Part shown: positions 15,008 through 47,983 of the stretch, one piece after another | Layout of the letters: each line of letters starts with the position of its first letter | How positions within the stretch are numbered: position 1 is the stretch's first letter | NCBI GenBank assembly: GCA_035402805.1 | Contig: DAONDY010000001.1 | Location: forward strand, 253,672 to 317,671 | Direction of reading: 5' to 3' | DNA length: 64,000 nucleotides | Source: Candidatus Woesebacteria bacterium | GTDB taxonomy: Bacteria; Patescibacteriota; Microgenomatia; UBA12405 | Notes under the pieces: model-generated | Told to the model about the DNA's origin: nothing | Database searches by the model: none | The model's input: the letters and a program-made list of their open reading frames with translations, nothing else | Made by a program: the position numbers and the translations under genes

Positions 15008-15009
15008 AT

Positions 15010-17907: not shown

Positions 17908-17908
17908 T

Positions 17909-18454
17909 ATGATTAAAAAAATATTAATCATTATTTTTTTTCTTTTTAATATTTTTGCTATTGTTTATTTAATTAGTCCTACACCAAATTTCCCCGATTT
18001 AGCCAACAGTGTTAAGTCTGATCTTCCTGGAGATACGGTCCAAATCGAAAATGTCTCCGCTTACTTTACCAACATGACCCGAACCGAAGTTATGAATTTC
18101 TATAAAGCTTACTACAGTGGCCCATTTAGAATCATCATTAATCATCCGCCAGAAAAAGCCCAGGAGCTTATTGTTAACACTCTTCAAAGTTATTATTTTG
18201 AAGAATTTATTTTACCTTTTAAAGAATCTTTATATATTAATGGATTCGAGTGGGAAAATAATGTTTTTACTAAACCAGAAAATAGAGACCAATTTAAAAT
18301 TATTTATAATGGCAAAGAATATAAATCTAAAATTACCCTGCGTCTTTATCCAACCTCTATTCCCAAAAGAATTTTTGCCTTTTTATTCACTGAATTTGTA
18401 GTTATATTTGCCTTTTACACCTATAAGTCATTTTTAAAAAAGAAACATGATTAA
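17909..18454 (+). CDS. hypothetical membrane protein (N- and C-terminal TM helices)
   Basis: ORF with a start at ATG 17909 immediately after the upstream stop. No recognisable domain. Confidence 0.4.
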   Translation: MIKKILIIIFFLFNIFAIVYLISPTPNFPDLANSVKSDLPGDTVQIENVSAYFTNMTRTEVMNFYKAYYSGPFRIIINHPPEKAQELIVNTLQSYYFEEFILPFKESLYINGFEWENNVFTKPENRDQFKIIYNGKEYKSKITLRLYPTSIPKRIFAFLFTEFVVIFAFYTYKSFLKKKHD

Positions 18455-21986: not shown

Positions 21987-21987
21987 A

Positions 21988-24011: not shown

Positions 24012-25099
24012 TCAAACCAAAGGTTGCTCTCTTTTATGATTGGTTAAACCAATGGGGAGGAGCCGAAAAAGTTTTATTAGACCTAATTAAACTTTACCCC
24101 AAAGCTCCTGTCTACACATTAATTTATGACCCAAAAAAAACTAAGTGGTTACCCAAAAATACTGTCGTAGTTCCTTCATTTCTTAACAAATTATCTCCTT
24201 CTAAAAAAAACAATATTCTTCACACTCCGCTTTATTCATCAGCTGTCCGCAGTTTTGATTTTTCTAAATTTGATATTGTCATTTCCACTTCATCAACTAT
24301 TGGCCACCATTTATTAATTCCTAAAAAAACCCTTTTTATTTGCTATCTTCACAACGTTAATCGCCACATTTATCAACAAAAATATCATTGGCCACTTTCT
24401 TATTTAATTTCTAAATATAAAGAAAAAGATAAACTTTACTCCCAAAATCCAGATTGTTTTTTTTGTAATTCCAAAACCGTTCAGAAAAGGATTTTTGATA
24501 TTTACAAACGAAAAGCCAAAATAATTTACCCGGGAATCGATACTTCTTTTTTTATTGCCTCAAAAAAGAAAGTGAAGGAAAAATATTTTTTAATTGTTTC
24601 CCGTTTGGTTTCTCATAAAAAAATTGATATTGCCATTAAAGCCTGTCATCAATTAAACAAAAAATTATATATTGTCGGCACTGGCCGAAATAAAAATAAG
24701 TTAAACAATTTAATTAATTATCTTAAAGACAAAAAGATAAAATTATTAGGTCAAATTGATAATGATAAACTTTTAAATCTTTATCAAAATTGTCAGGCCC
24801 TAATTTGCCCCCAATTAGAAGATTTTGGATTAACTCCTATTGAAGCTCAATCCTGTGGCAAACCAGTTATTGCCTACAACAAAGGAGGATTAACCGAAAC
24901 AGTAATTAATGAAAAAACAGGAATCTTTTTCAATAACCAAACAGTCAATGATTTAGTTGATGCTATTCAAATATTCGATTCAAAAAAATTTTCTCAAAAT
25001 CTTTGTCGGCAAAACGCTAAAAAATTTTCTAATCGAAGCTTTATGTTAAACTTTGAAAGAGAAGTAAATCTAATATGGAACAACAATCACCATCGATAA
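24008..25099 (+). CDS. glycosyltransferase family 1 (GT4-like)
   Basis: EDFGLTPIEAQSCGKPVIAYNKGGLTETV motif. Overlapping ATGA junction. Confidence 0.65.
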   Translation: MIKPKVALFYDWLNQWGGAEKVLLDLIKLYPKAPVYTLIYDPKKTKWLPKNTVVVPSFLNKLSPSKKNNILHTPLYSSAVRSFDFSKFDIVISTSSTIGHHLLIPKKTLFICYLHNVNRHIYQQKYHWPLSYLISKYKEKDKLYSQNPDCFFCNSKTVQKRIFDIYKRKAKIIYPGIDTSFFIASKKKVKEKYFLIVSRLVSHKKIDIAIKACHQLNKKLYIVGTGRNKNKLNNLINYLKDKKIKLLGQIDNDKLLNLYQNCQALICPQLEDFGLTPIEAQSCGKPVIAYNKGGLTETVINEKTGIFFNNQTVNDLVDAIQIFDSKKFSQNLCRQNAKKFSNRSFMLNFEREVNLIWNNNHHR

Positions 25100-26175
25100 A
25101 GCATTATATTTTTGTCCTCTGTGGCGGCACTGGACCACGTCTTTGGCCATTATCTAGAAAAGACAATCCCAAACAATTTCTTTCTCTCTTAGACAAAAAA
25201 TCAATTCTAGAACAAACTCTCAAAAGATCTCAACGAACAGTTGATCCTCAAAATATTTATATAGTTTCTGGAAAAAATTACTTTGACAAAATTATTAAAA
25301 TCGCTAAAGATTTTAATCTAACTAAAAATGTCATCATTGAACCAGAAAAGAAAAATACTGCTTTAGCCATTCTCTACGCCGTCACTAAGATCAAACAAAT
25401 TGACCCTAATGCTGTTATTAGCACTCTTCCATCAGATCACTATATTAAAAACATTTCTCGATTTAAACAAACTTTAGCCAAAGCTAAACGAATAGCTCAA
25501 TTAACCAATACTATCGTTACTATTGGAATTAAACCCACCAAACCAGATTCTTCTTACGGTTATATTTATCCAGATAAAAAAATTGACGACTATTATCATG
25601 TTGCTAAATTTATTGAAAAACCAGACGCCAAAAAGGCTCAAGATTTAATTGATAAAAATTCTTATTGGAACTCAGGAATTTATACTTTTTCAATTTCCAC
25701 CATCCTTTCTGAATTTGAAAAATTACAACCAGAATATTTTTCCATCTTTAAAAGATTAGAAGAAAATTTAAATTATCCAAAAAAAATAGAACAAATTTAT
25801 AAAGAGTCTCCTGATCTGGCAATAGATAAGGCCATTTCAGAAAAATCATCAAAAATGACCATGGTTCCCGCCACCTTTGATTGGAGTGATATTGGTGAAT
25901 GGGAGACTATTTTTTCAAAATCAATTAAAAGAAAGGATAACAATGCCATTATTAATTCTAAAACTCAATTTTTAACCACTAATTCTCAAAATTGTTTAAT
26001 TTCTGGTCAAGATAAAAAATTAATCGGTTTGGTCGGAGTCAATAATTTAGCCGTTATTGATACTCCAGATGCTTTATTAGTTTGTAATTTAGACTCTAGT
26101 TTTAATGTTCGAGATTTAGTAAGCTTAATGGTGAAAAATAAAAAATATAAAGTATATTTCCTAGGTCAAAAATGA
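25075..26175 (+). CDS. mannose-1-phosphate guanylyltransferase-like nucleotidyltransferase
   Basis: N-terminal NTP-transferase motif LCGGTGPRLWPLSRKDNPKQF. 366 aa with no cupin PMI domain. Confidence 0.7.
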   Translation: MEQQSPSIKHYIFVLCGGTGPRLWPLSRKDNPKQFLSLLDKKSILEQTLKRSQRTVDPQNIYIVSGKNYFDKIIKIAKDFNLTKNVIIEPEKKNTALAILYAVTKIKQIDPNAVISTLPSDHYIKNISRFKQTLAKAKRIAQLTNTIVTIGIKPTKPDSSYGYIYPDKKIDDYYHVAKFIEKPDAKKAQDLIDKNSYWNSGIYTFSISTILSEFEKLQPEYFSIFKRLEENLNYPKKIEQIYKESPDLAIDKAISEKSSKMTMVPATFDWSDIGEWETIFSKSIKRKDNNAIINSKTQFLTTNSQNCLISGQDKKLIGLVGVNNLAVIDTPDALLVCNLDSSFNVRDLVSLMVKNKKYKVYFLGQK

Positions 26176-26810
26176 GAAAAAAAATATTTGCAATTTTTAA
26201 AAGAACCATCGACATCATAGGCTCTATAATCCTTTTGATTTTATTTTCTCCCATAATGTTAGTCACTATGGTTTTAATAAAATTTGGTTCAGTCGGACCA
26301 ATTTTTTTTAAGCAAAAAAGAGTTGGCAAAGGTAGCCACGAATTTTGGATGTATAAATTTCGTTCCATGTATATTGGCGATAACGATAAAAGACTTAGAG
26401 AAAATTATCCTGACTTATGGAAAAAATATAAAGAAAGTGGTTGGAAATTACCAATGTGTGAAGACCCTCGTATTACTCCCATCGGTAAAAAAATAAGATC
26501 TCTAACTATCGATGAATTTCCTCAATTGATTAATGTCTTAAAAGGGGACATGAGTCTAGTTGGACCAAGAGCTTATCGCGAGGAAGAACTTCAAGAACAA
26601 GAAAAACGATATCCTAAAACCAAAAAATATATTGAAATAATAAGAACAGCCAAACCCGGAATTACTGGTGTCTGGCAAACTTCAGGACGAAATGACATTA
26701 CCTTTGAAGATAGAGCCAAAATGGATGCTGAATATATCAAAAAAGAATCATTTCTTGAAGAGATATTGATAATTATCAAAACTCCAATGTCCATGTTGTC
26801 TCGCTGGTAG
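26172..26810 (+). CDS. sugar transferase (small initiating undecaprenyl-phosphate hexose-1-phosphate transferase, Bac_transf family)
   Basis: Single N-terminal TM helix, then KFRSMY...DEFPQLINVLKGDMSLVGPRA motif. Confidence 0.8.
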   Translation: MRKKIFAIFKRTIDIIGSIILLILFSPIMLVTMVLIKFGSVGPIFFKQKRVGKGSHEFWMYKFRSMYIGDNDKRLRENYPDLWKKYKESGWKLPMCEDPRITPIGKKIRSLTIDEFPQLINVLKGDMSLVGPRAYREEELQEQEKRYPKTKKYIEIIRTAKPGITGVWQTSGRNDITFEDRAKMDAEYIKKESFLEEILIIIKTPMSMLSRW

Positions 26811-26829
26811 TTTTAAGTTAAACTTTAAT

Positions 26830-28740
26830 ATGGATCAATTAAACCCTGTAGTGCCTCCTGTTAAAATCAAAAAAACAATTCCAAAATTTGTCTGGATTAT
26901 TTTAATCATTTTATCGATAATTACCGTCTTACTTTTCTTTTTTATTTTTGTCCCTGGCAAAAAAATATACTCTCAAGTTAAAAACATTAAAGAAATAATT
27001 CCTGCCGTTAAAGAAGCCATTAATGATAAGGATTTAGACAAGATTAAAGAATCTTTAAACACTGCCACTAATCAGGTTAACTCCATCGAAATTAATTATA
27101 AAAAACTTGCTTGGACAAAGATTTTACCCATAGTTGGTAACTATTATAAAGATGGCCAACAAGCTTTAATAATTGCCAATCAAGGAATTGACACCGGTAA
27201 AATATTAATTCAAGCAATTGAACCATATAAAGATTTCTTAGGTGCTAAAGGTTCTTCAACCAGCAACGAAAAAACCACCGAAGATAGAATTGCTTTTTTA
27301 ACCGAGTCAGTTGAAGGTTTGATTCCTTATTTAGACCAAATTGAAGCCAAAGCCGCCATTATTCAGACCGCCATAGAACAAATTGATCCAGATCGTTATC
27401 CGGAGGAATTTAGAGGTATTGAGCTTAAGTCCAATATAATCAAAGTTAAAGATATTGTTGATGAAAGCTACAAGTTTATTAAAGATGGTAAACCGATTAT
27501 CGGTAAAATATCTTGGCTTTTAGGTAAAGACTCTCCACGCAAATATCTAGTGATTTTTCAAAATGATGGTGAACTTCGACCTAGTGGTGGTTTTTGGACA
27601 GCCTACAGCACCCTTACTGTTAAAAATGGTAAAGTTATTCCCGGTACTGCCAGTAATATTTATGATCTTGACGATAAAATTGCCAGCAAAATTCCTGCAC
27701 CTCGTTTAATTAAAAGCTATCATATTGGCGTTCCTTACTTAAATCTTCGTGATAATAATCTTTCTCCAGATTTTCCGACAGATGCCCAAATATTTTTAGA
27801 TCAATATTACAAAGCCATGGGTAAAAAAGATAAATTTGACGCTGTAATTTCCATTGACACCAATCTTTTGGTTGATATGGTAAAAGTTCTCGGAAAACTC
27901 GACACTCGTGTTGGAACTTTCACTGCCGAACCAGATAAAAGGTGCAACGGTTGTCCGTCAATAATTTATGATTTGGAATGGATTGCTGGTCGACCTAGAA
28001 ATTACATCGAAAAAAATAGAAAAGATTTTATGAATCCACTCATGTCATCTTTGCTTTCCAATATAATGGGTTCAGAAAAAACCAAAATGCCTTCTATTAT
28101 TGAAGCAGGACTAAAAAACATTAATGAAAAACATGTTATGTTCTATTTCCCAGATGATGAAATACAAACTATAGGTAATTTAGCCAATATTACCGGGAAA
28201 ATAGTTGATGTCGAAAAAAATGTAGACTATTTTCATTTAAATGATGCCAATTTTGCCAGTGCTAAAAGCAATATTTTTATCACTCAAAAAATTAAACATG
28301 ACATCACCATTAAAAATAATGTTGCCGAACACAAAATCTCAGTAACTTACGAAAACCCAGCTCCAGCTTCTAACTGTAATCTAGAAAAAGGAGACCTTTG
28401 TCTTAATGCTTCTCAATATCGCGATTTGTTCCGATTCTACGTTCCCATCGGTTCTAAGTTAACCAAAATGACTGGTTCTGAAGTCGAAGCAGTCCAATAC
28501 GAAGAATTAAACAAACAAGTGTTTGAAGGTTTCTATGGTAATAAATATGCCTTAAATGCCAAATCTAGTATAAAAACTTCAATTCAATATACTTCCAGCG
28601 TCACAGTTGGTTCAACTTATACCTTATTGCTTCAAAAACAGCCAGGAACTAAACCGGTTGAATATGAACTAACAATTAATGGCGAAGAACAGCCTGCTTT
28701 TCAGTGGGTTGCTGATAAAACCATTAAATTTTCCCTATAA
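26830..28740 (+). CDS. membrane-anchored large extracytoplasmic protein, DUF4012-like
   Basis: 636 aa with an N-terminal TM anchor. Pattern and location at the end of a polysaccharide locus resemble DUF4012 proteins. Assignment is from memory, not a search. Confidence 0.4.
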   Translation: MDQLNPVVPPVKIKKTIPKFVWIILIILSIITVLLFFFIFVPGKKIYSQVKNIKEIIPAVKEAINDKDLDKIKESLNTATNQVNSIEINYKKLAWTKILPIVGNYYKDGQQALIIANQGIDTGKILIQAIEPYKDFLGAKGSSTSNEKTTEDRIAFLTESVEGLIPYLDQIEAKAAIIQTAIEQIDPDRYPEEFRGIELKSNIIKVKDIVDESYKFIKDGKPIIGKISWLLGKDSPRKYLVIFQNDGELRPSGGFWTAYSTLTVKNGKVIPGTASNIYDLDDKIASKIPAPRLIKSYHIGVPYLNLRDNNLSPDFPTDAQIFLDQYYKAMGKKDKFDAVISIDTNLLVDMVKVLGKLDTRVGTFTAEPDKRCNGCPSIIYDLEWIAGRPRNYIEKNRKDFMNPLMSSLLSNIMGSEKTKMPSIIEAGLKNINEKHVMFYFPDDEIQTIGNLANITGKIVDVEKNVDYFHLNDANFASAKSNIFITQKIKHDITIKNNVAEHKISVTYENPAPASNCNLEKGDLCLNASQYRDLFRFYVPIGSKLTKMTGSEVEAVQYEELNKQVFEGFYGNKYALNAKSSIKTSIQYTSSVTVGSTYTLLLQKQPGTKPVEYELTINGEEQPAFQWVADKTIKFSL

Positions 28741-32478: not shown

Positions 32479-34128
32479 GTGATAAATCAAAGATCTAAAA
32501 TATTATCTATTGCCTTAACTTTTTGCTTCATCTTAGTTTCATCGCGTCTTTTTTATTGGCAAATAATAAAAGGACCAGAGCTAAGGGAAAAAGCTCAAAA
32601 CCAAGCTTATAAACTAGAAAAAATAATACCAGAACGAGGGAAAATATATTCATCAGATAATTTTCCCTTGGTTTTAAACCAAACCACCTATCAATTATCA
32701 ATTTATAAACCAAATCTTAAAGACAGCCTAGACGAAGTCATCGATAAAATAGAGCAAAATTATCCTAACTTTAAACTTGAAAATAATATTTCCATTGATA
32801 AATTTAAAAACAATCCAAATCAAAAATGGATTACTTTTAACTCGTTTTTTAGTGATAGCCAAAAAAAACAACTAGAAATCCCTGGGCTTGAATTTCAAAA
32901 AATAGCCAAAAGATATTATCCAGAAAATTTAATGGCCAAGGATATTCTCGGAATAATAAGTAAAGATTATCAAGGATCACCAGTTGGTTATGGTGGATTA
33001 GAAGCTTTTTATCAAAAACAGCTAAAAGGAAAAACTGGGTTCGTTTGGGCCCCACAAGATGCCACTGGCAAAACCATTTTAAACAAAAAAAGTTGGAGCT
33101 CTGAATCAATAAATGGTAGAGATATTTTTACTTCTATTAATCGAAGTGCTCAATTTTATGTTGAAAAACTATTACAAGAGGGTATAGATAAATATTCCGC
33201 CGACTCTGGTTCTATCACCGTTATGGAACCAAAAACCGGAGCCATTTTAGCTATGGCCTCTTTAACCAGTACTAGCTCCGCTACTATCAGTTCGATTAGA
33301 AATCCGGCTATTTCCGACCTTTTTGAACCAGGATCAATTTTTAAACCCATTGTTGTGTCTATGGCTCTAGATAATAAATCTATAAATACAGATTTTATCT
33401 GTAGCCAATGTCATCAACCTAACGTTATTGGTAAGTACTTTATCAGCAATTGGGATAATGAATTTCATCCTAACTCCAGTCTTCAAGATATTATTAAAAA
33501 TTCGGATAATATCGGTATGAGTTATATAATCGAAAAACTCGGAAAAGATGATTTTTTGAAATACTGTCAGAAATTAGGACTCAACCAAAAAACTGGAATT
33601 GATCTTCAAGGAGAAGCTAAACCGTCTTTAAAAACTGAATGGCCTGAAATCGACCTAGCTACCGCTTCTTTTGGTCAAGGAATTGTTGTTACTCAAATCA
33701 ACATGCTTCAAGCTTTTAATACCATTGCTAATAATGGTGTCTTGGTTAAACCAAAAGTTGCTAATTATTTTACAGAAGGGGATAAAATCATAAAAAATAA
33801 GAACCAGACCGAGACAAAAGTATTTAGCGATCAAACTATCACCGATGTTAAGGCAATTCTAAAATATGCTGTTGAAAATGGTGTTGTTTCACAATTTAAG
33901 CCAAAGAAACTAGAAGTTTGTGCTAAAAGCGGTACCGCTCAAATAGCTATTGGAGGAAAATACACCGATTCAAAAACTATTGCTTCATATATAGGATTTT
34001 CGCCTTGTGACAATCCTAAATTCACCATGATTGTCACCATTAATAATCCCAAAACTTCTCCCTGGGGATCAAGTACCGCCGCTCCAATTTGGTACGAATT
34101 AGCGTCAAAACTAAACGATTTGTTATAA
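32479..34128 (+). CDS. ftsI: peptidoglycan D,D-transpeptidase (class B PBP, FtsI-like)
   Basis: N-terminal TM, SxxK-region (SIFKPI), KSGTAQ (KTG-type) motif, dcw context. Confidence 0.85.
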   Translation: MINQRSKILSIALTFCFILVSSRLFYWQIIKGPELREKAQNQAYKLEKIIPERGKIYSSDNFPLVLNQTTYQLSIYKPNLKDSLDEVIDKIEQNYPNFKLENNISIDKFKNNPNQKWITFNSFFSDSQKKQLEIPGLEFQKIAKRYYPENLMAKDILGIISKDYQGSPVGYGGLEAFYQKQLKGKTGFVWAPQDATGKTILNKKSWSSESINGRDIFTSINRSAQFYVEKLLQEGIDKYSADSGSITVMEPKTGAILAMASLTSTSSATISSIRNPAISDLFEPGSIFKPIVVSMALDNKSINTDFICSQCHQPNVIGKYFISNWDNEFHPNSSLQDIIKNSDNIGMSYIIEKLGKDDFLKYCQKLGLNQKTGIDLQGEAKPSLKTEWPEIDLATASFGQGIVVTQINMLQAFNTIANNGVLVKPKVANYFTEGDKIIKNKNQTETKVFSDQTITDVKAILKYAVENGVVSQFKPKKLEVCAKSGTAQIAIGGKYTDSKTIASYIGFSPCDNPKFTMIVTINNPKTSPWGSSTAAPIWYELASKLNDLL

Positions 34129-34139
34129 TTAAACACCAA

Positions 34140-35456
34140 ATGATTCAAAAACTTAAAAATATTTTTATTCATCTACCAAAAAGTATTTTTTACAATTTCT
34201 ATTACGGTTTTCCCTCAAAAAAACTAACTCTCATCGGAGTTACTGGTACAGATGGCAAAACCACCACCTGCACCCTAATTCATGAAATTTTAAAACAATC
34301 TGGCCTAAAAACAGGATTAATTACCACTATTGGAGCCAAAGTTGAAGACCGGGAAATCGATACTGGTTTTCACACTACTACACCAGATCCATCTTTACTT
34401 CAAAAAATTTTGGCCGAAATGGTTAAGGCCGGTATGACTCATGTTGTTTGTGAAGTTACTTCTCACGCTCTTGATCAATATCGTTTTTTAGGTTGTCAAT
34501 TTGAAATTTCTGGAATTACTAATACCTCTCACGAACATCTTGATTATCATAAAAATTTAACCAATTACATCAACACTAAAGCCAAGTTATTTTCTATATC
34601 AAAAAGTGCTGTTTTAAATAAAGACGATCAATCCTTTGAAATTATTAAAAAACAAATTAAAACTCCCTTTAAAACATTTAGTATTAAAGAAAATTCCGAT
34701 TATCAAGCCAAAAAAATTAAGTTAGATCAAAATCTACTTAACTTTGAAGTCAACGATCAAAAATTTACTACCGATAGTAATTATGAATATCAAATTTACA
34801 ATATTCTTTTAGCTTTAGCCATTTGCCAAAAATTAAAAATTGATTTAAGTCTTGTTCAGAAAACCATAGAACATTTTCCTGAAACTAAAGGTCGTCGAGA
34901 AGAAATTCCAAATGATTTTAAATTTAAAACTATTATCGATTTTGCCCACACTCCTTTTGCTTTGGAAGCCTCACTTTCATCACTTAGAAAAATAGATAAA
35001 GGTAATCTTATTGTTATTTTTGGTGCCACCGGAGGACGAGACCAAAGCAAACGCCCTGAGATGGGTAAAGTTGTTTCTAAACAAGCTAATATTGCTTTTA
35101 TTACCGCCGACGATACTCGAAACGAAAAAATAGAAGATATTAATAAACAAATAATTAGCGGAATTGACCCCAAAAAATCAGAGTTGATCGATTATCAGGA
35201 AATAAAAAACAAAAAACAAATTCAAAATATAATTGAATTATCAAAACAAAAATTTATTTATTTTAATATTCCTAATCGGCAAGACGCTTTCAATCTAGCT
35301 ATAAAATTTGCCCAACCACAGGACATTGTTATTGCCTGCGGTAAAGGTCACGAAACCACTATTCTTCACGGCCGCACTGAATATCCCTGGTCAGAAGCCG
35401 AAGCTTTCAGAACCGCTTTTAGACTTAAAAAATTAAATAAAAATGGCTCAATTTAA
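34140..35456 (+). CDS. murE: Mur ligase, MurE-like (UDP-MurNAc-L-Ala-D-Glu:diamino acid ligase)
   Basis: GVTGTDGKTTT P-loop and Mur-ligase middle/C domains. Start moved to ATG 34140 just after the ftsI stop. Position after ftsI. Confidence 0.75.
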   Translation: MIQKLKNIFIHLPKSIFYNFYYGFPSKKLTLIGVTGTDGKTTTCTLIHEILKQSGLKTGLITTIGAKVEDREIDTGFHTTTPDPSLLQKILAEMVKAGMTHVVCEVTSHALDQYRFLGCQFEISGITNTSHEHLDYHKNLTNYINTKAKLFSISKSAVLNKDDQSFEIIKKQIKTPFKTFSIKENSDYQAKKIKLDQNLLNFEVNDQKFTTDSNYEYQIYNILLALAICQKLKIDLSLVQKTIEHFPETKGRREEIPNDFKFKTIIDFAHTPFALEASLSSLRKIDKGNLIVIFGATGGRDQSKRPEMGKVVSKQANIAFITADDTRNEKIEDINKQIISGIDPKKSELIDYQEIKNKKQIQNIIELSKQKFIYFNIPNRQDAFNLAIKFAQPQDIVIACGKGHETTILHGRTEYPWSEAEAFRTAFRLKKLNKNGSI

Positions 35457-36036
35457 CTTAAAAAATACCAAAAGTATTGAAGAAAATTATCAAAGCGGAC
35501 TTTTACCTCAAAGGAATGATAAAAATTCCTTTTACTTTCAAACGAGCAGTCGTTCTAATTTAGAAAATTTTAATCTTAGTTCAGAAAATCGCCGAATATT
35601 ACGAAAAACCGAAAATTTCACTTTCGAGAAAAAAAGCCTTAATGATTTTGACTATAATTTTAAAGTTCAAAAAGACATAGCTGGTTGGATAAAAAATCTA
35701 TCTTGGAATTTTCCCGTTAGCTCCGTCAAAAATGTTTTTAAAAATCATATTTTTAATTATCTATACATTTGGAAAGACGAAAAAAACGAAATTATTGCCT
35801 ATTCTTTGTGTTATTTTTCAAAAAATATCAGTCACATTGCTTATGTTTTTTATAATCCTGCCCTTGCTAATAGCAATTTACCAATTAGGCTAGTACTTCA
35901 AGCTATTATTGATAGTCAAAAATTAGGTTTAAAATATTGTTATCTCGGTCGTTTCTCCTTAGAATCCGGTTATTATAAAAGAAATATGCCTGGTTTTGAA
36001 TATTTTAAAGATAATAATTGGGTTACACTTAATTAA
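35443..36036 (+). CDS. GNAT-fold aminoacyl-tRNA-dependent transferase-like protein (ATE/Bpt C-terminal-like or Fem-like)
   Basis: C-terminal YCYLGRFSLESGYYKRNMPGFEYF...W resembles the ATE_C/Bpt LGYW..S.KM.YK..F.P.E pattern. Embedded between two Mur ligases. Confidence 0.4.
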   Translation: MAQFNLKNTKSIEENYQSGLLPQRNDKNSFYFQTSSRSNLENFNLSSENRRILRKTENFTFEKKSLNDFDYNFKVQKDIAGWIKNLSWNFPVSSVKNVFKNHIFNYLYIWKDEKNEIIAYSLCYFSKNISHIAYVFYNPALANSNLPIRLVLQAIIDSQKLGLKYCYLGRFSLESGYYKRNMPGFEYFKDNNWVTLN

Positions 36037-36039
36037 TAT

Positions 36040-37413
36040 ATGCACATCCATATTCTAGGCATCGCTGGTACGATGACCGCTCCTTTAGCCGTCGCCTTAA
36101 AAAAGGAAGGACACTTAATCACTGGTTCTGACCAAGAAAAAATTTATCCGCCTGTCAGTACTATTTTAAAAAAATCTAATATTAAAATTAATTCTCAAAA
36201 AATTGATTCTACTATCGATTTGGCCATAATTGGCGGATCATACTCCAGTTTTCAAAAAACCAAAGAAGAATTTGAGCAAATTAAAAAACTTAAAATTAAA
36301 TATATATCCGCAAGTGAGTTTATAGCTCAAAAATTAATTAAAGAAAATTCTGTTTTAATTGCCGGAACATATGGAAAAACTACCATCACTTCCTTAGTTT
36401 CCTGGATCTTTTGTCAATCAAATTTTAATCCAAATTATATGTTTGGAGGCGAAGCCATTAATCACTTTCCCTCTACCAATATTTCTTCGTCAAATTGGTC
36501 TGTAGTTGAAGCCGATGAATCAATTCACGGACTCGACAACCAAGCTAAATTTTTGTATTACCCAGTTAAGTTCTTAACATTAACTAGTGCTGATTGGGAA
36601 CACAAAGACTCATATTCCACAGAAATTGCCAATTTTAATGCTTTTAAAAAACTCATAACCAATGTTCCAGAAAATGGATTTTTACTCGTCAATTCTAAAG
36701 GTTTTCAAACTAAAGAGTTAAGCCTTTATTCTAAAACAAGAATAATCACATATAACTCATCAAATTCGGACTACTATCTAAAACATATAAAAATAAAAAA
36801 GAGTTATTCTGTTTTAAATATCAGAACCCCCAGAAATATTATTGAAATCAAAACTAAATTAATAGGTCAATTTAATTTTGAAAATATTCTAGCAGCAGTC
36901 GCTCTAACCGACAGTCTCAATATTAATCAAACTATTATCAAAAAGGCCATTTTCAATTTCAAGGGAATTAAACGCCGAATTGAAAAAATTTATGACCAAA
37001 ATAAAATTACCATCTTTGATGATTTTGCCCAATCTTCAAATAGAATTAAATCTACATTAGAAAGTATTAAATCTCATTTTCCCAAAAGAAATATAAAAAT
37101 TCTTTATCAACCTCATGCTTCCTTTATTCAATATAAAGAAAGCTTAAAAGATTTTAAAAACGCTTTCTCCTTAGCTTCTGAAATTGTTTTATCAAAAATA
37201 AATTACAACCATAACATTGATAAAAACAACCGCACTACTGCCAAAGATTTTAGAGATATTATCGGTTCAAAATTAGTTTATATACCGATAGACGAAGACA
37301 TTATTAATTTTTATAAACAAAACCTCAAATCTGGCGATATTTTAATAAATATGAGTTCTGGCGGTCTTAATGGAAACAACATTGTCAAATCTGTTATTAA
37401 TTATTTAAAATAA
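36040..37413 (+). CDS. Mur ligase of the MurC/Mpl subfamily (Mpl-like N-terminus)
   Basis: MHIHILGIAGTMTAPLA...GSD...YPPVST (Mpl/MurC-type N-domain) and a GTYGKTT P-loop. Confidence 0.75.
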   Translation: MHIHILGIAGTMTAPLAVALKKEGHLITGSDQEKIYPPVSTILKKSNIKINSQKIDSTIDLAIIGGSYSSFQKTKEEFEQIKKLKIKYISASEFIAQKLIKENSVLIAGTYGKTTITSLVSWIFCQSNFNPNYMFGGEAINHFPSTNISSSNWSVVEADESIHGLDNQAKFLYYPVKFLTLTSADWEHKDSYSTEIANFNAFKKLITNVPENGFLLVNSKGFQTKELSLYSKTRIITYNSSNSDYYLKHIKIKKSYSVLNIRTPRNIIEIKTKLIGQFNFENILAAVALTDSLNINQTIIKKAIFNFKGIKRRIEKIYDQNKITIFDDFAQSSNRIKSTLESIKSHFPKRNIKILYQPHASFIQYKESLKDFKNAFSLASEIVLSKINYNHNIDKNNRTTAKDFRDIIGSKLVYIPIDEDIINFYKQNLKSGDILINMSSGGLNGNNIVKSVINYLK

Positions 37414-37416: not shown

Positions 37417-38745
37417 ATGTCTAGATATATCATAACCGGTGGTAATCAACTTAAAGGCGAAGTCTCTATTAGAGGCGCTAAAAACGCTAGTTTTAAACAA
37501 ATAATTGCCTCAATGTTGACTAATAAAACTGTTTCATTAAATAATATTCCTCAAATATCTGATGTAAAAATAACTTTAAGCATTGCTAAAAGTCTTGGTT
37601 GCCAAGCAAAACAAATAGGTGAACATTGCCTTGAATTAACTACTCCAAAAATAAATAAATCAATTGTTCCCAGTGGTACTGGAGAAAAATCTCGAACCTC
37701 TTTTATGTTTGTAGCTCCGCTTCTGGCCAGAACTGGTACTGCCACAATTCCATCACCAGGAGGGGATAAATTAGGCAACCGACCTCTCGATCGTCTTTTC
37801 GATTGTTTTTCTCAAATGAATATAAAAACTTCTGAAAAAGAAAACGAAATTACTTTCAACACCGACAAAATCATTGGGACTCATTACACTTTTACTAAAC
37901 CGTCACATACTGTTACTGAAGTAATTATTATGACTGCTGTTTTAGCCCAAGGTGAAACAATTATTGATAATGCTGCTCTAGAACCAGAAATTGATGATCT
38001 TATTTTAATGTTAAATGAAATGGGAGCCAAAATTGAAAGAGATCCATCCAATAACAAAAGAATTACCATCCAAGGCGTTTCTTTATTAAACGGAACTGAA
38101 CACAGCGTAATTTGCGATCGAAACGAAATTGTCACTTTCGCTTGTGCCGCTTTAGCCACCAAAGGTTCTATCTGCATTCTTAGAATAAAACCAGACGTAG
38201 TCAAAACATTTTTAGACGTTATAAAAAAAATGGGGGCCGAAGTTAAAGTTGGTAATGATGAAATCTGTATTCAATGGGTTAAACCATTAACTAATATAGA
38301 TATCGAAACTGGTCCAGAACCTATGTTTATGACCGATTGGCAAGCCATCTTTACTGTTCTATTGACCCAAACTGTAGGGTGTAGTTCACTTATTGAAACA
38401 GTTTTTCCAAATAGATTTCAACATATTGAAAATCTCAAAAAAATGGGTGGAAAATTCAATTTCTTTAATCCACCTGTTAAAGATCCAGATAATTATTATC
38501 AATTCAATAAAGAAAGTGATAATCCTCAATACTTCCACGGTGTAAAAATATATGGACCAACCATGCTTAAACCAGCCAACTTTGTTATTAGTGACCTTCG
38601 AGCCGGAGCTTCAGCTACTGTTGCCGCTCTAACAGCTCAAGGAAAATCAATTATTGATGGAGTTGAATACATAGAAAGGGGATATGAAAAATTAGCTGAA
38701 CGTCTTTCTTCTTTAGGTGCTAACATAGAATATATAAAAACGTAA
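37417..38745 (+). CDS. murA: UDP-N-acetylglucosamine 1-carboxyvinyltransferase
   Basis: IRGAKNASFKQIIASMLT N-terminus and two-domain EPSP-like architecture. 442 aa. Confidence 0.9.
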   Translation: MSRYIITGGNQLKGEVSIRGAKNASFKQIIASMLTNKTVSLNNIPQISDVKITLSIAKSLGCQAKQIGEHCLELTTPKINKSIVPSGTGEKSRTSFMFVAPLLARTGTATIPSPGGDKLGNRPLDRLFDCFSQMNIKTSEKENEITFNTDKIIGTHYTFTKPSHTVTEVIIMTAVLAQGETIIDNAALEPEIDDLILMLNEMGAKIERDPSNNKRITIQGVSLLNGTEHSVICDRNEIVTFACAALATKGSICILRIKPDVVKTFLDVIKKMGAEVKVGNDEICIQWVKPLTNIDIETGPEPMFMTDWQAIFTVLLTQTVGCSSLIETVFPNRFQHIENLKKMGGKFNFFNPPVKDPDNYYQFNKESDNPQYFHGVKIYGPTMLKPANFVISDLRAGASATVAALTAQGKSIIDGVEYIERGYEKLAERLSSLGANIEYIKT

Positions 38746-38749: not shown

Positions 38750-39784
38750 ATGATGCATTTATATCTTGGTTTATTACTTTTTTCTTTTTTAATCACTAGT
38801 ATTTTAGTTGTTCCTTTTATTAATCTTCTCTATAAACTTAAGTTTCAAAGACAAATTCAAAAAACTACCGACTTCCAAAATAAAAGAACCACTATTTTTG
38901 ATAAATTTCACAACCAAAAATCTGGCACTCCTGTTGGTGGCGGTCTTCTGATAATAGTCTCAGTTTGTTTAATGTTTATAATTCTTTTCCCCATACTTAA
39001 ATTCTCCAGAATCTTTATTTCCTCCAACTACAATATAGAGAACGAATTATTTATTCTCTTTTTTACCTTTATAAGCTTTGGATTATTAGGACTTTATGAC
39101 GACATCTATAAATTTTTCGGATTTAAAAAAACTGGCTTTTTCGGCTTGAAGATGGTCCACAAATTTATATTACAAATATTGATCTCTTTAGTTATTTCTT
39201 TAATGATTTATTTTAAACTTAAGATCGAATTCATTTATATACCCTTTTTAGGTCCCATTCACTTAGGATTTTTCTTTGTTCCTATTTCAACTGTTATTAT
39301 CACCGGTTTTGCTAATTTCTTTAATATAAGTGACGGCCTAGACGGGCTTTCTTGTGGATTATTAATGATTGCCTTATTTTCATTTTGGATTTTAGCCAGC
39401 AACTCTTTAGACACCGTCATTTCTTCTTTTCTGGCACTTTGGATTGGTGCTCTAATCGCTTTCTTGTATTTTAATGTTTATCCAGCCAGAATCTGGCTTG
39501 GCGATGTTGGCTCACTTTCCTTTGGAGCCACTTTTGCGGTCATTGCTCTTTTATTAGGAAAAATAGTCCCCTTAATAATTGTTGGCTCACCCTTCATTAT
39601 TGAAGGTATGTCCAGTGCTATTCAGCTAATTAGTAAAAAATATTTTAAAAAGAAAATTTTTCCAGCCGCTCCGCTTCATTTAACCCTTCAAAGTATTGGT
39701 TGGGAAGAACCAAAAATAGTTATGCGTGCTTGGTTGGCTGGAATTATATTAGCAATCTTTGGATTATGGCTGGGAATAAATTAG
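38750..39784 (+). CDS. mraY: phospho-N-acetylmuramoyl-pentapeptide transferase
   Basis: DD.YKF, NFFNISDGLDGL and C-terminal HH-like motifs. 10 TM helices. Confidence 0.9.
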   Translation: MMHLYLGLLLFSFLITSILVVPFINLLYKLKFQRQIQKTTDFQNKRTTIFDKFHNQKSGTPVGGGLLIIVSVCLMFIILFPILKFSRIFISSNYNIENELFILFFTFISFGLLGLYDDIYKFFGFKKTGFFGLKMVHKFILQILISLVISLMIYFKLKIEFIYIPFLGPIHLGFFFVPISTVIITGFANFFNISDGLDGLSCGLLMIALFSFWILASNSLDTVISSFLALWIGALIAFLYFNVYPARIWLGDVGSLSFGATFAVIALLLGKIVPLIIVGSPFIIEGMSSAIQLISKKYFKKKIFPAAPLHLTLQSIGWEEPKIVMRAWLAGIILAIFGLWLGIN

Positions 39785-40320
39785 ATTTATTAAAACAGGA
39801 GATCCAATATTATATTGGCTTACCTTATAGTAAAAACATCCTTAAGAACGGAAAAATAATTAAAGAACAATTTCTTGGGGGTAAAGGTAATTATCGTCAA
39901 ATTGCAACCGAAACCATTAGACTTGCTCAACAACAAAAAATAGATTTACTTAAACTAAGTAACCAAGAGTTCTATAATTTTCAAAAGAAAAATCATCTTG
40001 GAATAGATTGTTCTGGACTTGCCTGTCAGTTATTAAACTTTTATTTTCAAGCTGATTTAAATCCGCGAAAAACTTCAGCCGACATGTTAACATCTGCTCC
40101 AATTTCCCAAAAAATAACCGATTTGGATAAAATCCAAACAGGTGATTTAGTTCGCCAAAACAACGGCCATCATGTTTTATTTGTCATCGAAAAACAAAAC
40201 AACACCATTTACTACGTTGACAGTTCACTTAAAGGCAGGGGAGTAAAATATGGTAAGTTTGATATTACCGATAAAAATTTTATTCACCAAGGTTTTTATC
40301 GATTACTTTTCCTCGATTAA
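39766..40320 (+). CDS. NlpC/P60 (C40) family cysteine peptidase-like protein
   Basis: HLGIDCSGLACQLL (catalytic Cys motif) and TGDLV....GHHVLFVI (His motif). Start chosen at ATG 39766, overlapping the mraY end by 19 nt. Confidence 0.45.
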   Translation: MAGNKLDLLKQEIQYYIGLPYSKNILKNGKIIKEQFLGGKGNYRQIATETIRLAQQQKIDLLKLSNQEFYNFQKKNHLGIDCSGLACQLLNFYFQADLNPRKTSADMLTSAPISQKITDLDKIQTGDLVRQNNGHHVLFVIEKQNNTIYYVDSSLKGRGVKYGKFDITDKNFIHQGFYRLLFLD

Positions 40321-40461
40321 TTCTCGATATTTTAACGGGTTTATAGACAAAATCTCAACTTCAGTTCCACATTCAGGACACTCGATAATATCTCCCACCA
40401 TAGTATTTTCTGTTATTTCAATTTCGGTTTGACAATCTGGACAAATAACTTTTTCGTTCAT
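40303..40461 (-). CDS. LysW-like zinc-ribbon small protein (52 aa, 2x CxxC)
   Basis: Translation MNEKVICPDCQTEIEITENTMVGDIIECPECGTEVEILSINPLKYRELIEEK follows the LysW/ArgW carrier pattern CPxC..E.......GE.IEC.ECG.E.E.....P. It lacks the canonical C-terminal EDWGE tail. Missed by the 60-aa ORF cutoff. Confidence 0.45.
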   Translation of the reverse strand: MNEKVICPDCQTEIEITENTMVGDIIECPECGTEVEILSINPLKYRELIEEK

Positions 40462-40501: not shown

Positions 40502-41257
40502 ATGGCAAACACTCCTTTAATCAAATTAGAAGATGTTTATTTCAAAAGAGAAGATCTAAATGAAACTGGATCAGCTAAGGATCGGGCTATTATTTTTCAA
40601 ATAGAAAATCTCAAAAAACAAGGATTTAATAGTGCTGTAATTTCTAGCACTGGCAATGCTGCCATTTCTGCTTGCCATTTTTGTTTTTTGAACAAAATTA
40701 ACCTAACCGTTTTTTTATCACCCAAAGTAAACAAAAATAAATTAAATTTAATCAAAAACTGCCAAATAGTTTTCTCTAATAAAGCCATTAGCGATGCTAT
40801 TAAATTTGCTAAAAAAAATAACGCTTATCTTTTACGTCAATCAACTGACCCCAGTGCTTTAATTGGTTATCAAGAAATTGGCAAAGAATTAACCAAAGCT
40901 ACCAGCATTTTTGTTCCAGTTGGCAGTGGCACCACTCTTTTAGGAATCTCCCAAGCGGTTAATCCTTCAGTTAAAATGTTTGCCATTAAACCAGAAAACA
41001 CCTTATTAACTGATGCTCTCACTGTCAAATACCAACCCCTAAAAAACAGAGTAGCTTCTACTGTCAAAAATTCTGAAGGGTCAGAACTAATTATTCAAAA
41101 TAAAGAAATCTTGGAAGCTCAAAAAATACTAGAATCAAATAATATAAAGACCTCTCCCGAGGGAGCGTTGGCTTTTGCTGGATTTAAAAAAGCTAAAAAT
41201 CAAAAATTAGATATCGGTAGTTATCCAGTTGTAATCTTCACCGGATGTCAAAGATAA
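40502..41257 (+). CDS. short PLP-dependent enzyme of fold-type II (threonine-synthase/TrpB-like)
   Basis: TPLIKL...FKREDLNETGSAKDR (PLP-Lys motif), ISSTGNAAISA, PVGSGTTLLGI. Only 251 aa, lacking much of a ThrC C-terminal region. Confidence 0.55.
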   Translation: MANTPLIKLEDVYFKREDLNETGSAKDRAIIFQIENLKKQGFNSAVISSTGNAAISACHFCFLNKINLTVFLSPKVNKNKLNLIKNCQIVFSNKAISDAIKFAKKNNAYLLRQSTDPSALIGYQEIGKELTKATSIFVPVGSGTTLLGISQAVNPSVKMFAIKPENTLLTDALTVKYQPLKNRVASTVKNSEGSELIIQNKEILEAQKILESNNIKTSPEGALAFAGFKKAKNQKLDIGSYPVVIFTGCQR

Positions 41258-42360
41258 ATTTAGAAACTATCATTAATGATTCTCACTATTCCTTTTATTT
41301 TTTAGTGGTCGATAAGTTTCTAGACATAAATCTACCTCAAATCAAAAATTTTCACAAAATTTATCTTTCGGATTATTCTTCAATTAAAGTAAAAAATAGC
41401 GGAAAGCTTCTTAGTAATCAGAAAGTAATCGATTACATAAAATCGACATCAGGTTCTCTAATTCCCGCTATTATCCCTTTTAAGCCATCTGCTAAAATTG
41501 ATTTTTTATGTAAAAAATATAATTGGATAAATGTCAGTAATCCAGCCCCAATTAACCGATTTTTAGAAGATAAAATCAAGTTTGCCAAACTTTGTCAAAA
41601 ATATAAATTACCAATGATTCCTTTTGTCATTGGTAATTTTAATCAAAAAAACTTTTTAAAATATCAAAAATTATATGGCCCAAAATTGGTCTTACAAACT
41701 CATTTTGGTTGGGCTGGAAACAGCACTTTTTCTGCTTCGTCTTGGAACGAGATTAAAGATAAAATTTCTCCAGAAGTTATTACTAAATATAGCCCTTTTA
41801 TAAATTCTTCTTATTCTTTATTAAATAATTGTTGCCTTACTAAATTTGGTCTAATCCAAAGTCCTCCAGCTCTTCAATATACCGGAGTTAAACCATTTAC
41901 TCAAAACCCATTTACAACTGTTGGTCGACAATGGCCATCTTTTGCCCCATTAAAAATAATTAAAAAAATTAACACCATAACCAAAGATTTTTCCAAAATT
42001 TTAGAAGAAATCGGCTATAAAGGTTTTTTTGGACTTGATTTTTTAATCGATCAAGATAAAGTATTTTTATTAGAATGCAACCCTCGATTAACTGCCTCTT
42101 TTGATTTCTATACTAGACTCGAGTTAGGTCAAAAGATAACCCCTCTTTTTTATTTCCATCTGGCCGAATTTTTAAAACTTGATTATCAAATTGACATTAA
42201 ATTAGAACAAAAACGATTTGACAATAAAAAAATTATTGGCTCTGAATTGACTCCAAAAAATAAAAATAATAATTCTTGTCAGAAGCTAAATTTTTTTTAT
42301 CCTTTATCTAAAACCACTAATCCAATTTCTATCCCAAAAGATTTAAATGAAAAAAACTAA
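41245..42360 (+). CDS. ATP-grasp carboxylate-amine ligase (CPSase-type ATP-grasp), at the syntenic ddl position
   Basis: EDKIKFAKLCQKYKLPMIPF pre-ATP-grasp motif and GFFGLDFLIDQDKVFLLECNPRLTAS core. The E.NPR.S signature differs from Ddl's E.NT.PG.T. Confidence 0.55.
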   Translation: MSKINLETIINDSHYSFYFLVVDKFLDINLPQIKNFHKIYLSDYSSIKVKNSGKLLSNQKVIDYIKSTSGSLIPAIIPFKPSAKIDFLCKKYNWINVSNPAPINRFLEDKIKFAKLCQKYKLPMIPFVIGNFNQKNFLKYQKLYGPKLVLQTHFGWAGNSTFSASSWNEIKDKISPEVITKYSPFINSSYSLLNNCCLTKFGLIQSPPALQYTGVKPFTQNPFTTVGRQWPSFAPLKIIKKINTITKDFSKILEEIGYKGFFGLDFLIDQDKVFLLECNPRLTASFDFYTRLELGQKITPLFYFHLAEFLKLDYQIDIKLEQKRFDNKKIIGSELTPKNKNNNSCQKLNFFYPLSKTTNPISIPKDLNEKN

Positions 42361-43525
42361 ATCTCCTTTATTATTTTTAGTTTTTAGTCTAATTTTTATT
42401 GGCCTTATTTTTATTTCCATCTCTTCATTAAGTGAAGCCAATTCTACTATTGGTGACAAATTTTTCTTTATTAAAAAACAAGCCTTTTGGCTTATTTTAG
42501 GTATAATTTGTTTTTTTATAACTTCAAAAATTAAAATTGAAACAATCAAAAAATTTTCTTTTCTTTTTTATGCAGCCTCTATTTTATGTTTAGTTTTAGT
42601 TTTGATTCCTGGTTTTGGCAACGAAGCTCTTGGAGCCAAACGCTGGCTAAATTTAGGGTTTACTAGTATTCAACCATCAGAAATACTAAAACTTAGTTCA
42701 ATTATTTATTTTGCTTATCTATTTTCTAAAGAAGAAAAACGTCATATAAAAAACCTGATTTTTTATTTAGGAATTCCTTTTATTCTTATCATCATTGAAC
42801 CTAACTTGAGCACTGCTATTTTAATCTCTGCCATTGTTGGTTCTATTTATTATCTTTCTGGTGGCGATGTTATGCCTTTATTCGGAATTATCAGTCTTAT
42901 TTTAATTTTAAGTGTGCCATTAATCTTTTTTTCACCCTATAGATCGGCTAGATTAAAAACATTTTTAGAACCTCAACAAAATCAAGAAACATCTTCCTAT
43001 CATAGCAACCAAATAATACTAACTCTTTCTTCTGGGGGTCTCTTGGGAAAGGGTTTTGCTAATTCAGATCAAAAATATAAATTTCTACCTAAAATATCAA
43101 CCGATTCAATTTTGGCAGTTATTGGCGAAGAGGTTGGTTTTGTTGGTATTTTTGTAGTTTTATTAATTTATCTTTCTTTAATAAATTACCTGTTAAAATT
43201 TTCCAAAACTATAGATGACCAATTTCAAAGCCTTTTGGTTTCCGGCACTGCCTGTTGGATCGCCTACCAAAGTTTGATAAATATTTCTGCTATCGCTGCT
43301 CTTATACCCCTAACAGGAGTTCCTCTTCCTTTTATTTCCTATGGTGGATCATCACTATTAACCCTTTTTGTCGCCATTGGTTTAGTCAGAAATGTCGAAA
43401 AAAACCAAAAAATGCTGTTATACTCAAAGAGTGACCACAGTCAAACAAAAAAAAACGATCATTATCACCGGGACCCATCTCACCCCAGCCTTAGAACTCA
43501 TTCGACAACTAAAATCAGATCCTGA
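42347..43525 (+). CDS. ftsW: SEDS-family peptidoglycan glycosyltransferase (FtsW-like)
   Basis: 10 TM helices, periplasmic loop motifs SDSILAVIGEEVGFVG and PLPFISYGGSS. The 3' end overlaps the murG ORF. Confidence 0.8.
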   Translation: MKKTKSPLLFLVFSLIFIGLIFISISSLSEANSTIGDKFFFIKKQAFWLILGIICFFITSKIKIETIKKFSFLFYAASILCLVLVLIPGFGNEALGAKRWLNLGFTSIQPSEILKLSSIIYFAYLFSKEEKRHIKNLIFYLGIPFILIIIEPNLSTAILISAIVGSIYYLSGGDVMPLFGIISLILILSVPLIFFSPYRSARLKTFLEPQQNQETSSYHSNQIILTLSSGGLLGKGFANSDQKYKFLPKISTDSILAVIGEEVGFVGIFVVLLIYLSLINYLLKFSKTIDDQFQSLLVSGTACWIAYQSLINISAIAALIPLTGVPLPFISYGGSSLLTLFVAIGLVRNVEKNQKMLLYSKSDHSQTKKNDHYHRDPSHPSLRTHSTTKIRS

Positions 43526-47962: not shown

Positions 47963-47983
47963 CATAGTGTAAAATACACTATG
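47963..47983 (+). promoter_or_regulatory. perfect 9-bp inverted repeat CATAGTGTA-aaa-TACACTATG spanning the ileS start codon
   Basis: Seen directly in the sequence. The ATG of ileS is the last 3 nt of the right arm. Confidence 0.5.

Follow-up and report, generated by a model that had tools for sequence, protein, structure and literature searches.

A putative aminoacyl-tRNA-dependent transferase of the ATE1/Bpt type in the cell-wall gene cluster of Candidate Phyla Radiation bacteria

What does a relative of the arginyl- and leucyl-tRNA-protein transferases (ATE1 and Bpt) do between two Mur ligases? The question is raised by a 64,000-nt stretch of a Candidatus Woesebacteria genome (GenBank assembly GCA_035402805.1, contig DAONDY010000001.1, positions 253,672 to 317,671 of the forward strand), hereafter called the window, in which an open reading frame (ORF) with an ATG start at 35443..36036 (+) encodes a 197-aa protein, here termed ATE-like, within the division and cell wall (dcw) gene cluster. 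The original prediction, made without database searches, was that the product is an ATE/Bpt- or Fem-like transferase of the GNAT fold, and that its location argues for a role in the cell wall, namely the addition of an amino acid from aminoacyl-tRNA to the stem peptide, rather than in N-end-rule tagging of proteins. The placement of the ORF proved exact: both neighbors encode proteins with Mur-ligase domains, the start codon region of the ATE-like gene overlaps the MurE stop by 14 nt, and only 3 nt separate its own stop from the MurC-like gene.

A truncated relative of ATE1 and Bpt

The ATE-like protein, whose C-terminus reads ...YCYLGRFSLESGYYKRNMPGFEYFKDNNW..., is a truncated relative of ATE1 and Bpt that carries the ATE_C GNAT domain. 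Pfam ATE_C (PF04377) matched residues 98-170 at 26.1 bits (E 1.4e-5), just above its gathering score of 25, and was the sole Pfam match of the protein at E<=10. In an alignment of 40 family members with 25-66% identity (alignment A2), ATE_C was matched by 39 relatives and Acetyltransf_6 by 19, and weak matches were obtained to Acetyltransf_1 (9/40), Acetyltransf_7 (5/40), and Acetyltransf_10 (1/40). Comparison of A2 by hhalign with P0266, a protein carrying both ATE_N and ATE_C, gave a probability of 98.5% and an E value of 1.7e-15, with residues 34-196 aligned onto 84-256. FemAB (PF02388) was matched neither by the window protein at E<=10 nor by any of the 40 relatives at E<=1. The best family was thus ATE_C itself and not an unrelated one.

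The rest of the ATE1 architecture is largely missing. None of the 40 relatives matched ATE_N (PF04376) at E<=1, whereas P0266, which has the Cys motifs and was taken from the same search as a control, scored 28 bits with ATE_N and 72 bits with ATE_C. Only the final ~18 positions of ATE_N are retained (R37...NRR51; R..L..F..SSENRR), and its first ~55 positions, including the Zn/Fe-S cysteines, are missing, with no alignable counterpart of the GWRRSG region. There is no cysteine within residues 1-122 of the window protein, residues 1-33 stayed outside the hhalign alignment to ATE_N, and no relevant match was obtained when the first 106 residues of a relative of the long form served as query. The Cys-rich N-terminal part thus appears to have been replaced by an unrelated or unrecognizable segment of 33-55 residues. 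Six NCBIfam arginyltransferase (Bpt) models scored 23-33 bits over residues about 35-197, the best reaching 32.8 bits, and all missed their equivalog cut-offs of 170-267 bits. Since ATE_N and the equivalog scores fail, we place the protein outside Bpt/ATE1 proper; since the FemAB profile and the two-domain architecture fail, we also place it outside FemABX. An exhaustive profile search of 1.84 billion representatives returned 233 clusters at E<=1e-3, and the family is therefore small and distinct. Sequence-profile searches of PDB with A2 and with the family alignment A1 reached ATE1 at sub-threshold levels only (E 0.12-0.5), and these matches were used for motif alignment alone. Existing databases label the protein either "hypothetical" or "arginyltransferase", and JGI names relatives arginyl-tRNA--protein arginylyltransferase.

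The gene is under strong purifying selection, with a dN/dS of about 0.1 (0.075-0.117 against five orthologues). There are 591 homologues in a 90% cluster database, and the mean column identity in an alignment of 26 of them is 73%. Together with the hhalign match to P0266 and the predicted structure and its fold matches, the homologues and the low dN/dS indicate that the ORF did not arise by chance.

The AlphaFold2 model, built from A1, has a pLDDT of 89.9 and a pTM of 0.86 and consists of a small N-terminal beta subdomain, a helix at residues 47-55, and a single complete GNAT fold from about residue 60 to 197. The best Foldseek matches in the PDB were ATE1 proteins (E range 5e-9 to 1e-6), with query TM scores of 0.70 for human ATE1 (E 5e-9) and up to 0.75 for the yeast and K. 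lactis enzymes. They were followed by the aminoacyl-phosphatidylglycerol synthase domains of MprF (E about 1e-6), by Sba18, a tRNA-dependent peptide synthase (PDB 9wqy; E 1.6e-5), and by FemX (1xf8; E 1.7e-5, query TM 0.52). In all, 49 of the 50 fold matches listed are aminoacyl-tRNA-dependent transferases, the exception being serotonin N-acetyltransferase at rank 46. With ATE_C, hhalign, and the top fold matches in agreement, the predicted resemblance of the C-terminus to the ATE C-domain was borne out. The broader description as ATE/Bpt- or Fem-like held in part: the GNAT domain is of the ATE/Bpt type and has a Tyr-Lys pair like that of FemX, but the Fem-like half is contradicted by the single GNAT domain and by the 0/40 FemAB matches.

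For the active site, we aligned A2 with residues 238-307 of yeast ATE1 using HMMER and read the alignment against the paper on K. lactis Ate1 (klAte1). Residues invariant in A2 include G19, R37, S47-E48-N49, R51, G169, Y178, K179, and W193. Y178-K179 (35974..35979, +) aligned to the ...MNYKANY segment of the yeast enzyme and is the equivalent of klAte1 Y303-K304 and FemX F304-K305. In klAte1, the K304A and Y303F variants are inactive, and the Y303/K304 pair has been equated with F304/K305 of FemX (PMC9351520). Y137 aligned with Ate1 W260, a position occupied by Tyr in mammals (PMC9351520). The arginine pocket of klAte1 is formed by S255, S273, E277, and Y289, and the Bpt counterparts of these residues are A168, A185, Q189, and L201 (PMC9351520). 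At the same positions, the ATE-like protein has I132, L150, A154, and C166, which make its pocket hydrophobic and leave it without charge, so that arginine is an unlikely donor; to judge from the aligned residues, the donor amino acid is likely small or non-polar.

The helix S47-K55 (SENRRILRK; 35581..35607, +) bears R50, R51, R54, and K55, R50 being conserved in at least 90% of the 40 relatives, and is a putative tRNA-binding patch. A basic patch on alpha3 of klAte1 (K112-K123) is essential for activity (PMC9351520), and the ATE-like helix appears to be placed like it, an equivalence inferred from motif order rather than superposition. The region of klAte1 R80, the Arg that recognizes the acidic N-terminal residue, could not be aligned in the ATE-like family; by eye, the sequence reads GFLPxR24 where Bpt-like proteins have GFRRSG. 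We take the GWRRSG motif to be the site of R80. Because this region is not alignable, the acceptor specificity need not be for N-terminal Asp or Glu.

Linkage to mur genes across CPR lineages

If the enzyme acts in wall synthesis, its gene would be expected beside mur genes in other genomes as well. A scan of one genome per GTDB species yielded at least 582 loci with ATE-like relatives. The best 80 of these at least 582 loci all come from lineages of the Candidate Phyla Radiation (CPR; Patescibacteria), among them, by record title, Shapiro-, Woese-, Dojka-, Sacchari-, Magasanik-, Taylor-, and Parcubacteria, with 30-86% identity; close relatives come from Shapirobacteria. Many GTDB records with the CPR-type cluster (L005, L007-L009, and others) are titled "uncultured Gammaproteobacteria bacterium". 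Those titles are wrong, given the gene content and the 60-90% identity to Shapirobacteria genes.

We read the context of about 6-10 kb around each relative and mapped the dcw proteins of the window onto the fetched loci. In 81 of the 86 fetched loci (78 of 83 non-redundant), the gene immediately after the ATE-like one encodes a MurC-like protein, and the gap between the two has a median of 11 nt and measures <=60 nt in 66 loci. MraY accompanies the ATE-like gene in 63/83 loci. Directly upstream, Microgenomates and Dojkabacteria have MurE, and Saccharibacteria and Parcubacteria have MraY. In addition, the ATE-like and MurC-like proteins are fused in frame in a single 645-aa ORF (P0122; L084 8001..9938, also L085 and L086) through a Pro/Ser-rich linker, PSPSVPSPSVPSPSTPS, in a MurE-[fusion]-MurA context. 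The fusion was found in three assemblies of one lineage, at least two of which stem from the same groundwater project. The gene is thus not unlinked from mur genes in related genomes, and the cell-wall role first argued from location alone gains support from a linkage that spans several CPR phyla and from the murC fusion.

Sister CPR lineages carry MurB, Ddl, MurF, and MurD within the same cluster (L055, L056, L059, and L074). Within the 64-kb window, by contrast, the only Mur-ligase paralogues are MurE and the MurC-like protein, with neither MurD nor MurF detected, and MurB and Ddl are missing from its dcw cluster. A replacement of MurD or MurF by the ATE-like protein was considered and rejected, as aminoacyl-tRNA cannot extend the C-terminus of a peptide and the sister clusters hold MurB, Ddl, MurF, and MurD. 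Because those clusters keep these genes, and because aminoacyl-tRNA delivers an activated carboxyl group to an amine whereas Mur ligases extend the carboxyl end, we regard the ATE-like gene as an addition to the canonical pathway.

The dcw cluster of the window runs RecO, GlyRS, a hypothetical gene, RsmH, FtsL, FtsI, MurE, ATE-like, MurC-like, and MurA, followed by MraY, an NlpC/P60-like gene, a small minus-strand gene, PLP (a pyridoxal-phosphate enzyme), ATP-grasp, FtsW, MurG, FtsQ-like, FtsA, and FtsZ. MurE (UDP-MurNAc-tripeptide synthetase; 34089..35456, +) has Mur-ligase domains and scored 351.8 bits with TIGR01085 (cut-off 257.3). Its listed start is a TTG codon 40 nt inside the end of ftsI (window 34089..34140); the true start may be a Met 16 codons downstream (MIQKLKN...), about where tblastn matches in relatives begin. 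The MurC-like ligase (36040..37413, +) has three Mur-ligase domains and scored 239.7 bits with TIGR01082 (murC), under the cut-off of 335.1 but over its mpl score of 186.8 bits. MurA (37417..38745, +) exceeded its cut-off with 412.7 bits (TIGR01072), and MraY (38750..39784, +) matched Pfam Glycos_transf_4 and scored 168.8 bits with TIGR00445. The upstream GlyRS was considered as a clue to the donor and dropped, since the recO-GlyRS pair is unrelated to the ATE-like gene; recO followed by a glycyl-tRNA synthetase gene is an old conserved pair.

Separate from the dcw-cluster FtsW (42347..43525), a second FtsW/RodA-family gene (50801..51796, +) lies just past an isoleucyl-tRNA synthetase-like gene (47981..50791). 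Ahead of the dcw genes, a large surface-polysaccharide cluster (5142..28740) encodes a UDP-glucose dehydrogenase, a Wzx-like flippase, several GT4/GT2 glycosyltransferases, a Wzy_C-like protein, a mannose-1-phosphate guanylyltransferase-like protein, Bac_transf, and DUF4012. On the minus strand, 54390..56858 encodes an 822-aa protein that combines an LCAT/lipase-type alpha/beta-hydrolase with a 3-keto-disaccharide-hydrolase-like (concanavalin-type) domain and may be a secreted lipase relevant to an epibiotic lifestyle.

The acceptor and its alternatives

Our findings fit an aminoacyl-tRNA-dependent transferase that serves cytoplasmic peptidoglycan-precursor synthesis; its use of tRNA, its donor, and its acceptor are all inferred. 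In the mechanism that we propose, a soluble, single-GNAT enzyme descended from ATE1/Bpt would take an L-amino acid, probably a small or non-polar one and not arginine, from aminoacyl-tRNA and would transfer it onto a peptidoglycan precursor in the cytoplasm, at a free amino group that is most likely the side-chain amine of the position-3 diamino acid added by the upstream MurE. Our preference for this amine is tentative, at somewhat less than even confidence. Transfer from aminoacyl-tRNA requires an amine as acceptor, and within the stem peptide residue 3 alone has a free one. The role would be akin to that of FemX and MurM in Firmicutes, reached by independent recruitment of another member of the GNAT clan.

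Several observations weigh against stem-peptide branching. The family has one GNAT domain and no FemAB signature, and F104 stands at the aligned position of the His that binds C75/A76 in FemX and klAte1. Linkage indicates a shared pathway and not a step within it, since conservation of dcw gene order can have various causes, and Mur enzymes of non-consecutive steps are also known to be fused. A further fusion protein, P0191 (809 aa; L087 8001..10430), joins an ATE-like domain to PPDK_N and PEP-utilizers domains outside the dcw cluster, beside restriction/helicase genes and with a Mur ligase 5 kb upstream, which suggests that the ATE-like domain is also used in another context. Residue 3 itself could not be read from MurE. 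The specificity motif of the window MurE is DDTR (residues 340-346, window 35106..35126) and not the DNPR of enzymes that add meso-diaminopimelate (DAP), and more than 60 related loci have DDTR, EDPR, or DDPR; the Arg, which in DNPR binds the DAP carboxylate, is kept in the window MurE and in these loci, and the Asn is lost, so that motifs such as DDTR and EDPR are ambiguous. The literature searched held no peptidoglycan composition for any CPR bacterium. Finally, a carrier protein encoded in the same cluster ends in ...Glu-x-Lys and offers a second, chemically equivalent acceptor that fits equally well and that the original prediction had not considered.

The carrier is the small minus-strand gene between the NlpC/P60-like and PLP genes (40303..40461, -). 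It encodes a 52-aa LysW-like zinc ribbon (MNEKVICPDC...YRELIEEK) that scored 50 bits with Pfam Zn_ribbon_LysW (PF21344) and matched LysW structures in the PDB (5k2m_E, E 1.3e-7; 3wwl_A, E 5.4e-7). The initial list of ORFs, with its minimum of 60 aa, did not include it. In canonical LysW, the cargo is borne by the C-terminal Glu of an acidic tail, EDWGE. The tail of the LysW-like protein falls short of this one by about 5 residues, and its last residue is Lys in all 52 locus copies and in all 120 of the 1754 database hits that were listed (EEK, EQK, or DEGK), with E50 and K52 invariant; because the canonical cargo site is a C-terminal Glu, this Lys end needs an explanation. The family comprises 1754 clusters, the source names given being all of CPR lineages, and databases annotate the Lys-ended carrier as "LysW" or "lysine biosynthesis protein LysW". 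A LysW-like gene is present in 58 of 58 loci with the PLP gene, is divergent from it in 57, and lies 24-655 nt upstream in nearly all.

The carrier is co-conserved with three further enzymes. A cytoplasmic NlpC/P60-like Cys-His peptidase (39766..40320, +), whose start was placed at a Met conserved in orthologues, scored 19.5 bits with Pfam NLPC_P60 (gathering score 23). Its C82 (GIDCSG) and H136 are invariant in 16 orthologues, its best PDB profile matches were to Spr/MepS (E 0.2, sub-threshold, aligned over the Cys and His), and inspection revealed no signal peptide. The PLP gene (40502..41257, +), divergent from the LysW-like gene, encodes a short fold-type II enzyme that scored 119.8 bits with Pfam PALP and is distant from the threonine synthase, cysteine synthase, and SbnA models, falling far under their cut-offs. 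The third is a divergent ATP-grasp ligase (41245..42360, +; Pfam ATP-grasp_3 27.3 bits; NCBIfam PRK06524 106.8 bits against a cut-off of 684), which is present in 50/83 loci. PDB searches with these three proteins gave generic or sub-threshold matches only; for ATP-grasp, the profile matched generic ATP-grasp proteins and no likeness to LysX was detected. The peptidase, PLP, and ATP-grasp genes accompany MraY, MurC, and ATE-like genes across CPR phyla in two gene orders.

The main alternative is that the acceptor is the epsilon-amine of the C-terminal lysine of the LysW-like protein, or an intermediate bound to this lysine. Modification or extension of the tethered residue would then fall to the PLP enzyme and the ATP-grasp ligase, and the NlpC/P60-like peptidase would release a building block for the Mur ligases. 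In combining a carrier with an ATP-grasp ligase, a PLP enzyme, and a peptidase, such a set follows the same logic as LysW, LysX, LysJ, and LysK, and the ...Glu-x-Lys end matches a Lys-type UDP-MurNAc-tripeptide in its end group, where both the epsilon-amine and the alpha-carboxylate are free. The strict pairing of a clear LysW homologue with the PLP gene and the invariant Lys end speak for this alternative, as do three loci seeded independently from LysW-like proteins of other lineages: in all three, the PLP, LysW-like, MurC-like, ATE_C-like, and MraY genes were present, and in two of the three the putative NlpC/P60-like and ATP-grasp genes as well. The ATE-like gene is nevertheless tied to murC and not to the carrier gene, its fusions are only to MurC and to a phosphoenolpyruvate (PEP)-utilizing enzyme, and no fusion of a LysW-like protein was found among the longer relatives searched. 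Moreover, some ATE-like loci (L064, L070, and L083) have no carrier gene within 6 kb, the ATP-grasp enzyme is not detectably LysX-like, and no enzyme is known that aminoacylates a carrier-protein lysine from tRNA. We give the carrier lysine roughly one chance in five of being the acceptor. With about the same low probability, MraY, MurC, ATE-like, the Lys-ended carrier, PLP, ATP-grasp, and the NlpC/P60-like peptidase may form a seven-gene CPR module that builds a wall block on a small, ribosomally made carrier. No description of this module was found in the literature searched, nor anything on the ATE-like family, the MurC fusion, or the Lys-ended LysW-like protein.

Salvage of host material offers another explanation, to which we give only a small chance. 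CPR bacteria depend on host-derived building blocks, and ATE1 and Bpt act on N-terminal Asp or Glu; an ATE-like enzyme could thus place L-Ala from Ala-tRNA onto the N-terminal (iso)glutamate of host-derived gamma-D-Glu-diamino-acid peptides, and a MurC/Mpl-like ligase could join the product to UDP-MurNAc. The coupling, once as a fusion, to a ligase that matches both murC and mpl models and the co-conservation of a cytoplasmic NlpC/P60-like peptidase agree with such a route. It is countered by the GWRRSG region, whose acid-recognizing Arg is unalignable in the ATE-like family, by the presence of MurD and MurE in the same clusters, where stepwise synthesis is intact, and by the higher score of the ligase as MurC than as Mpl.

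A slimmer chance still goes to an N-degron role, in which a Bpt-like enzyme would mark proteins at their N-termini for Clp-dependent degradation, its gene having no functional tie to the dcw cluster around it. Bpt/ATE is indeed the closest sequence family, and the JGI annotation points the same way, but the scores lie far below the Bpt cut-offs, ATE_N with its Cys motif is absent from 40/40 relatives although the control was positive, and a murC-adjacent position kept across phyla, together with the fusion, would hardly be expected of a factor in general proteolysis. N-end-rule tagging, which the original prediction had disfavored on location, is thus unlikely on the domain evidence too.

Least probable of all is a common GNAT N-acyltransferase that uses acyl-CoA and no tRNA, for instance to acetylate or succinylate the amine of a precursor: this reading draws on the weak Acetyltransf_1/_7/_10 matches of some relatives and on the best PDB sequence-profile matches of A2, which are GNAT acetyltransferases (E 0.06-0.09), but the top fold matches are all tRNA-dependent transferases, the Tyr-Lys pair and basic helix typical of the tRNA-dependent subgroup are invariant, and the motif Q/R-x-x-G-x-G/A, which binds the CoA pyrophosphate after beta4 in GNAT acyltransferases, is absent from the window protein, whose beta4-alpha3 junction (NSNLPIRL; N143-S-N-L-P-I-R149) lacks glycine, the wider family reading an ambiguous LGMGMM in this region.

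Implications and comparison with known systems

Knowledge of the CPR cell wall is nearly all inferred from gene lists. A conserved CPR-wide enzyme with intact catalytic residues beside murC would imply an extra tRNA-dependent step in precursor synthesis, and our findings suggest an as yet undescribed way of building or decorating the wall peptide in CPR bacteria. If stem-peptide branching is correct, the protein would be, to our knowledge, the first enzyme of the ATE/Bpt lineage in wall synthesis and an independent recruitment of the Fem function, and CPR bacteria would be predicted to have a muropeptide of their own, of importance in host recognition and in the targeting of these epibionts. 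If instead the Lys-ended LysW-like carrier is the partner, a new biosynthetic logic would emerge, with a tRNA- and carrier-protein-dependent route into peptidoglycan. The annotations "hypothetical protein", "arginyltransferase", and "lysine biosynthesis protein LysW" would be corrected.

Among known systems, ATE1 and Bpt share the most with the ATE-like protein: the ATE_C GNAT domain with its F-Y-D/N-P, (S)LG, and YLG motifs and catalytic Y-K and, where ATE_N meets ATE_C, the R..L..F..S..NRR motif and, to judge from motif order, a basic helix. The hydrophobic donor pocket of the leucine-transferring Bpt also resembles that of the ATE-like protein. In contrast to ATE1, however, the ATE-like protein is half the size, and unlike both ATE1 and Bpt, it is restricted to CPR bacteria and encoded inside a mur/dcw operon with no link to N-degron components. 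FemABX and MurM belong to the same GNAT clan as the ATE-like protein. FemX and its relatives have in common with it the catalytic aromatic-Lys pair, the FemX fold match, the association with wall-synthesis genes, and the proposed function, but the ATE-like protein has no FemAB match, no coiled-coil insertion, and one GNAT domain instead of two, and its query TM score is 0.52 with FemX as opposed to 0.70-0.75 with ATE1.

The C-terminal domain of MprF (DUF2156), the second-best fold group, likewise has a tRNA-dependent GNAT fold and a catalytic Lys. MprF, however, combines tandem GNAT domains with a membrane flippase domain and uses a lipid head group as acceptor, whereas the ATE-like protein is small and soluble. 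Enzymes of the Sba18 type are also GNAT proteins that move an amino acid from tRNA onto a metabolite amine, but they belong to secondary-metabolite clusters, and the ATE-like gene lies in the core cell-wall operon of genome-reduced bacteria. Finally, the LysW system resembles the CPR set in that a 52-aa LysW homologue is accompanied by an ATP-grasp enzyme, a PLP enzyme, and a peptidase. The CPR carrier differs in its shorter tail, which ends in Lys and not Glu, and in its partners, a non-LysX ATP-grasp ligase, a fold-type II PLP enzyme, and an NlpC/P60-like peptidase, and the whole set resides in the dcw cluster beside a putative tRNA-dependent transferase.

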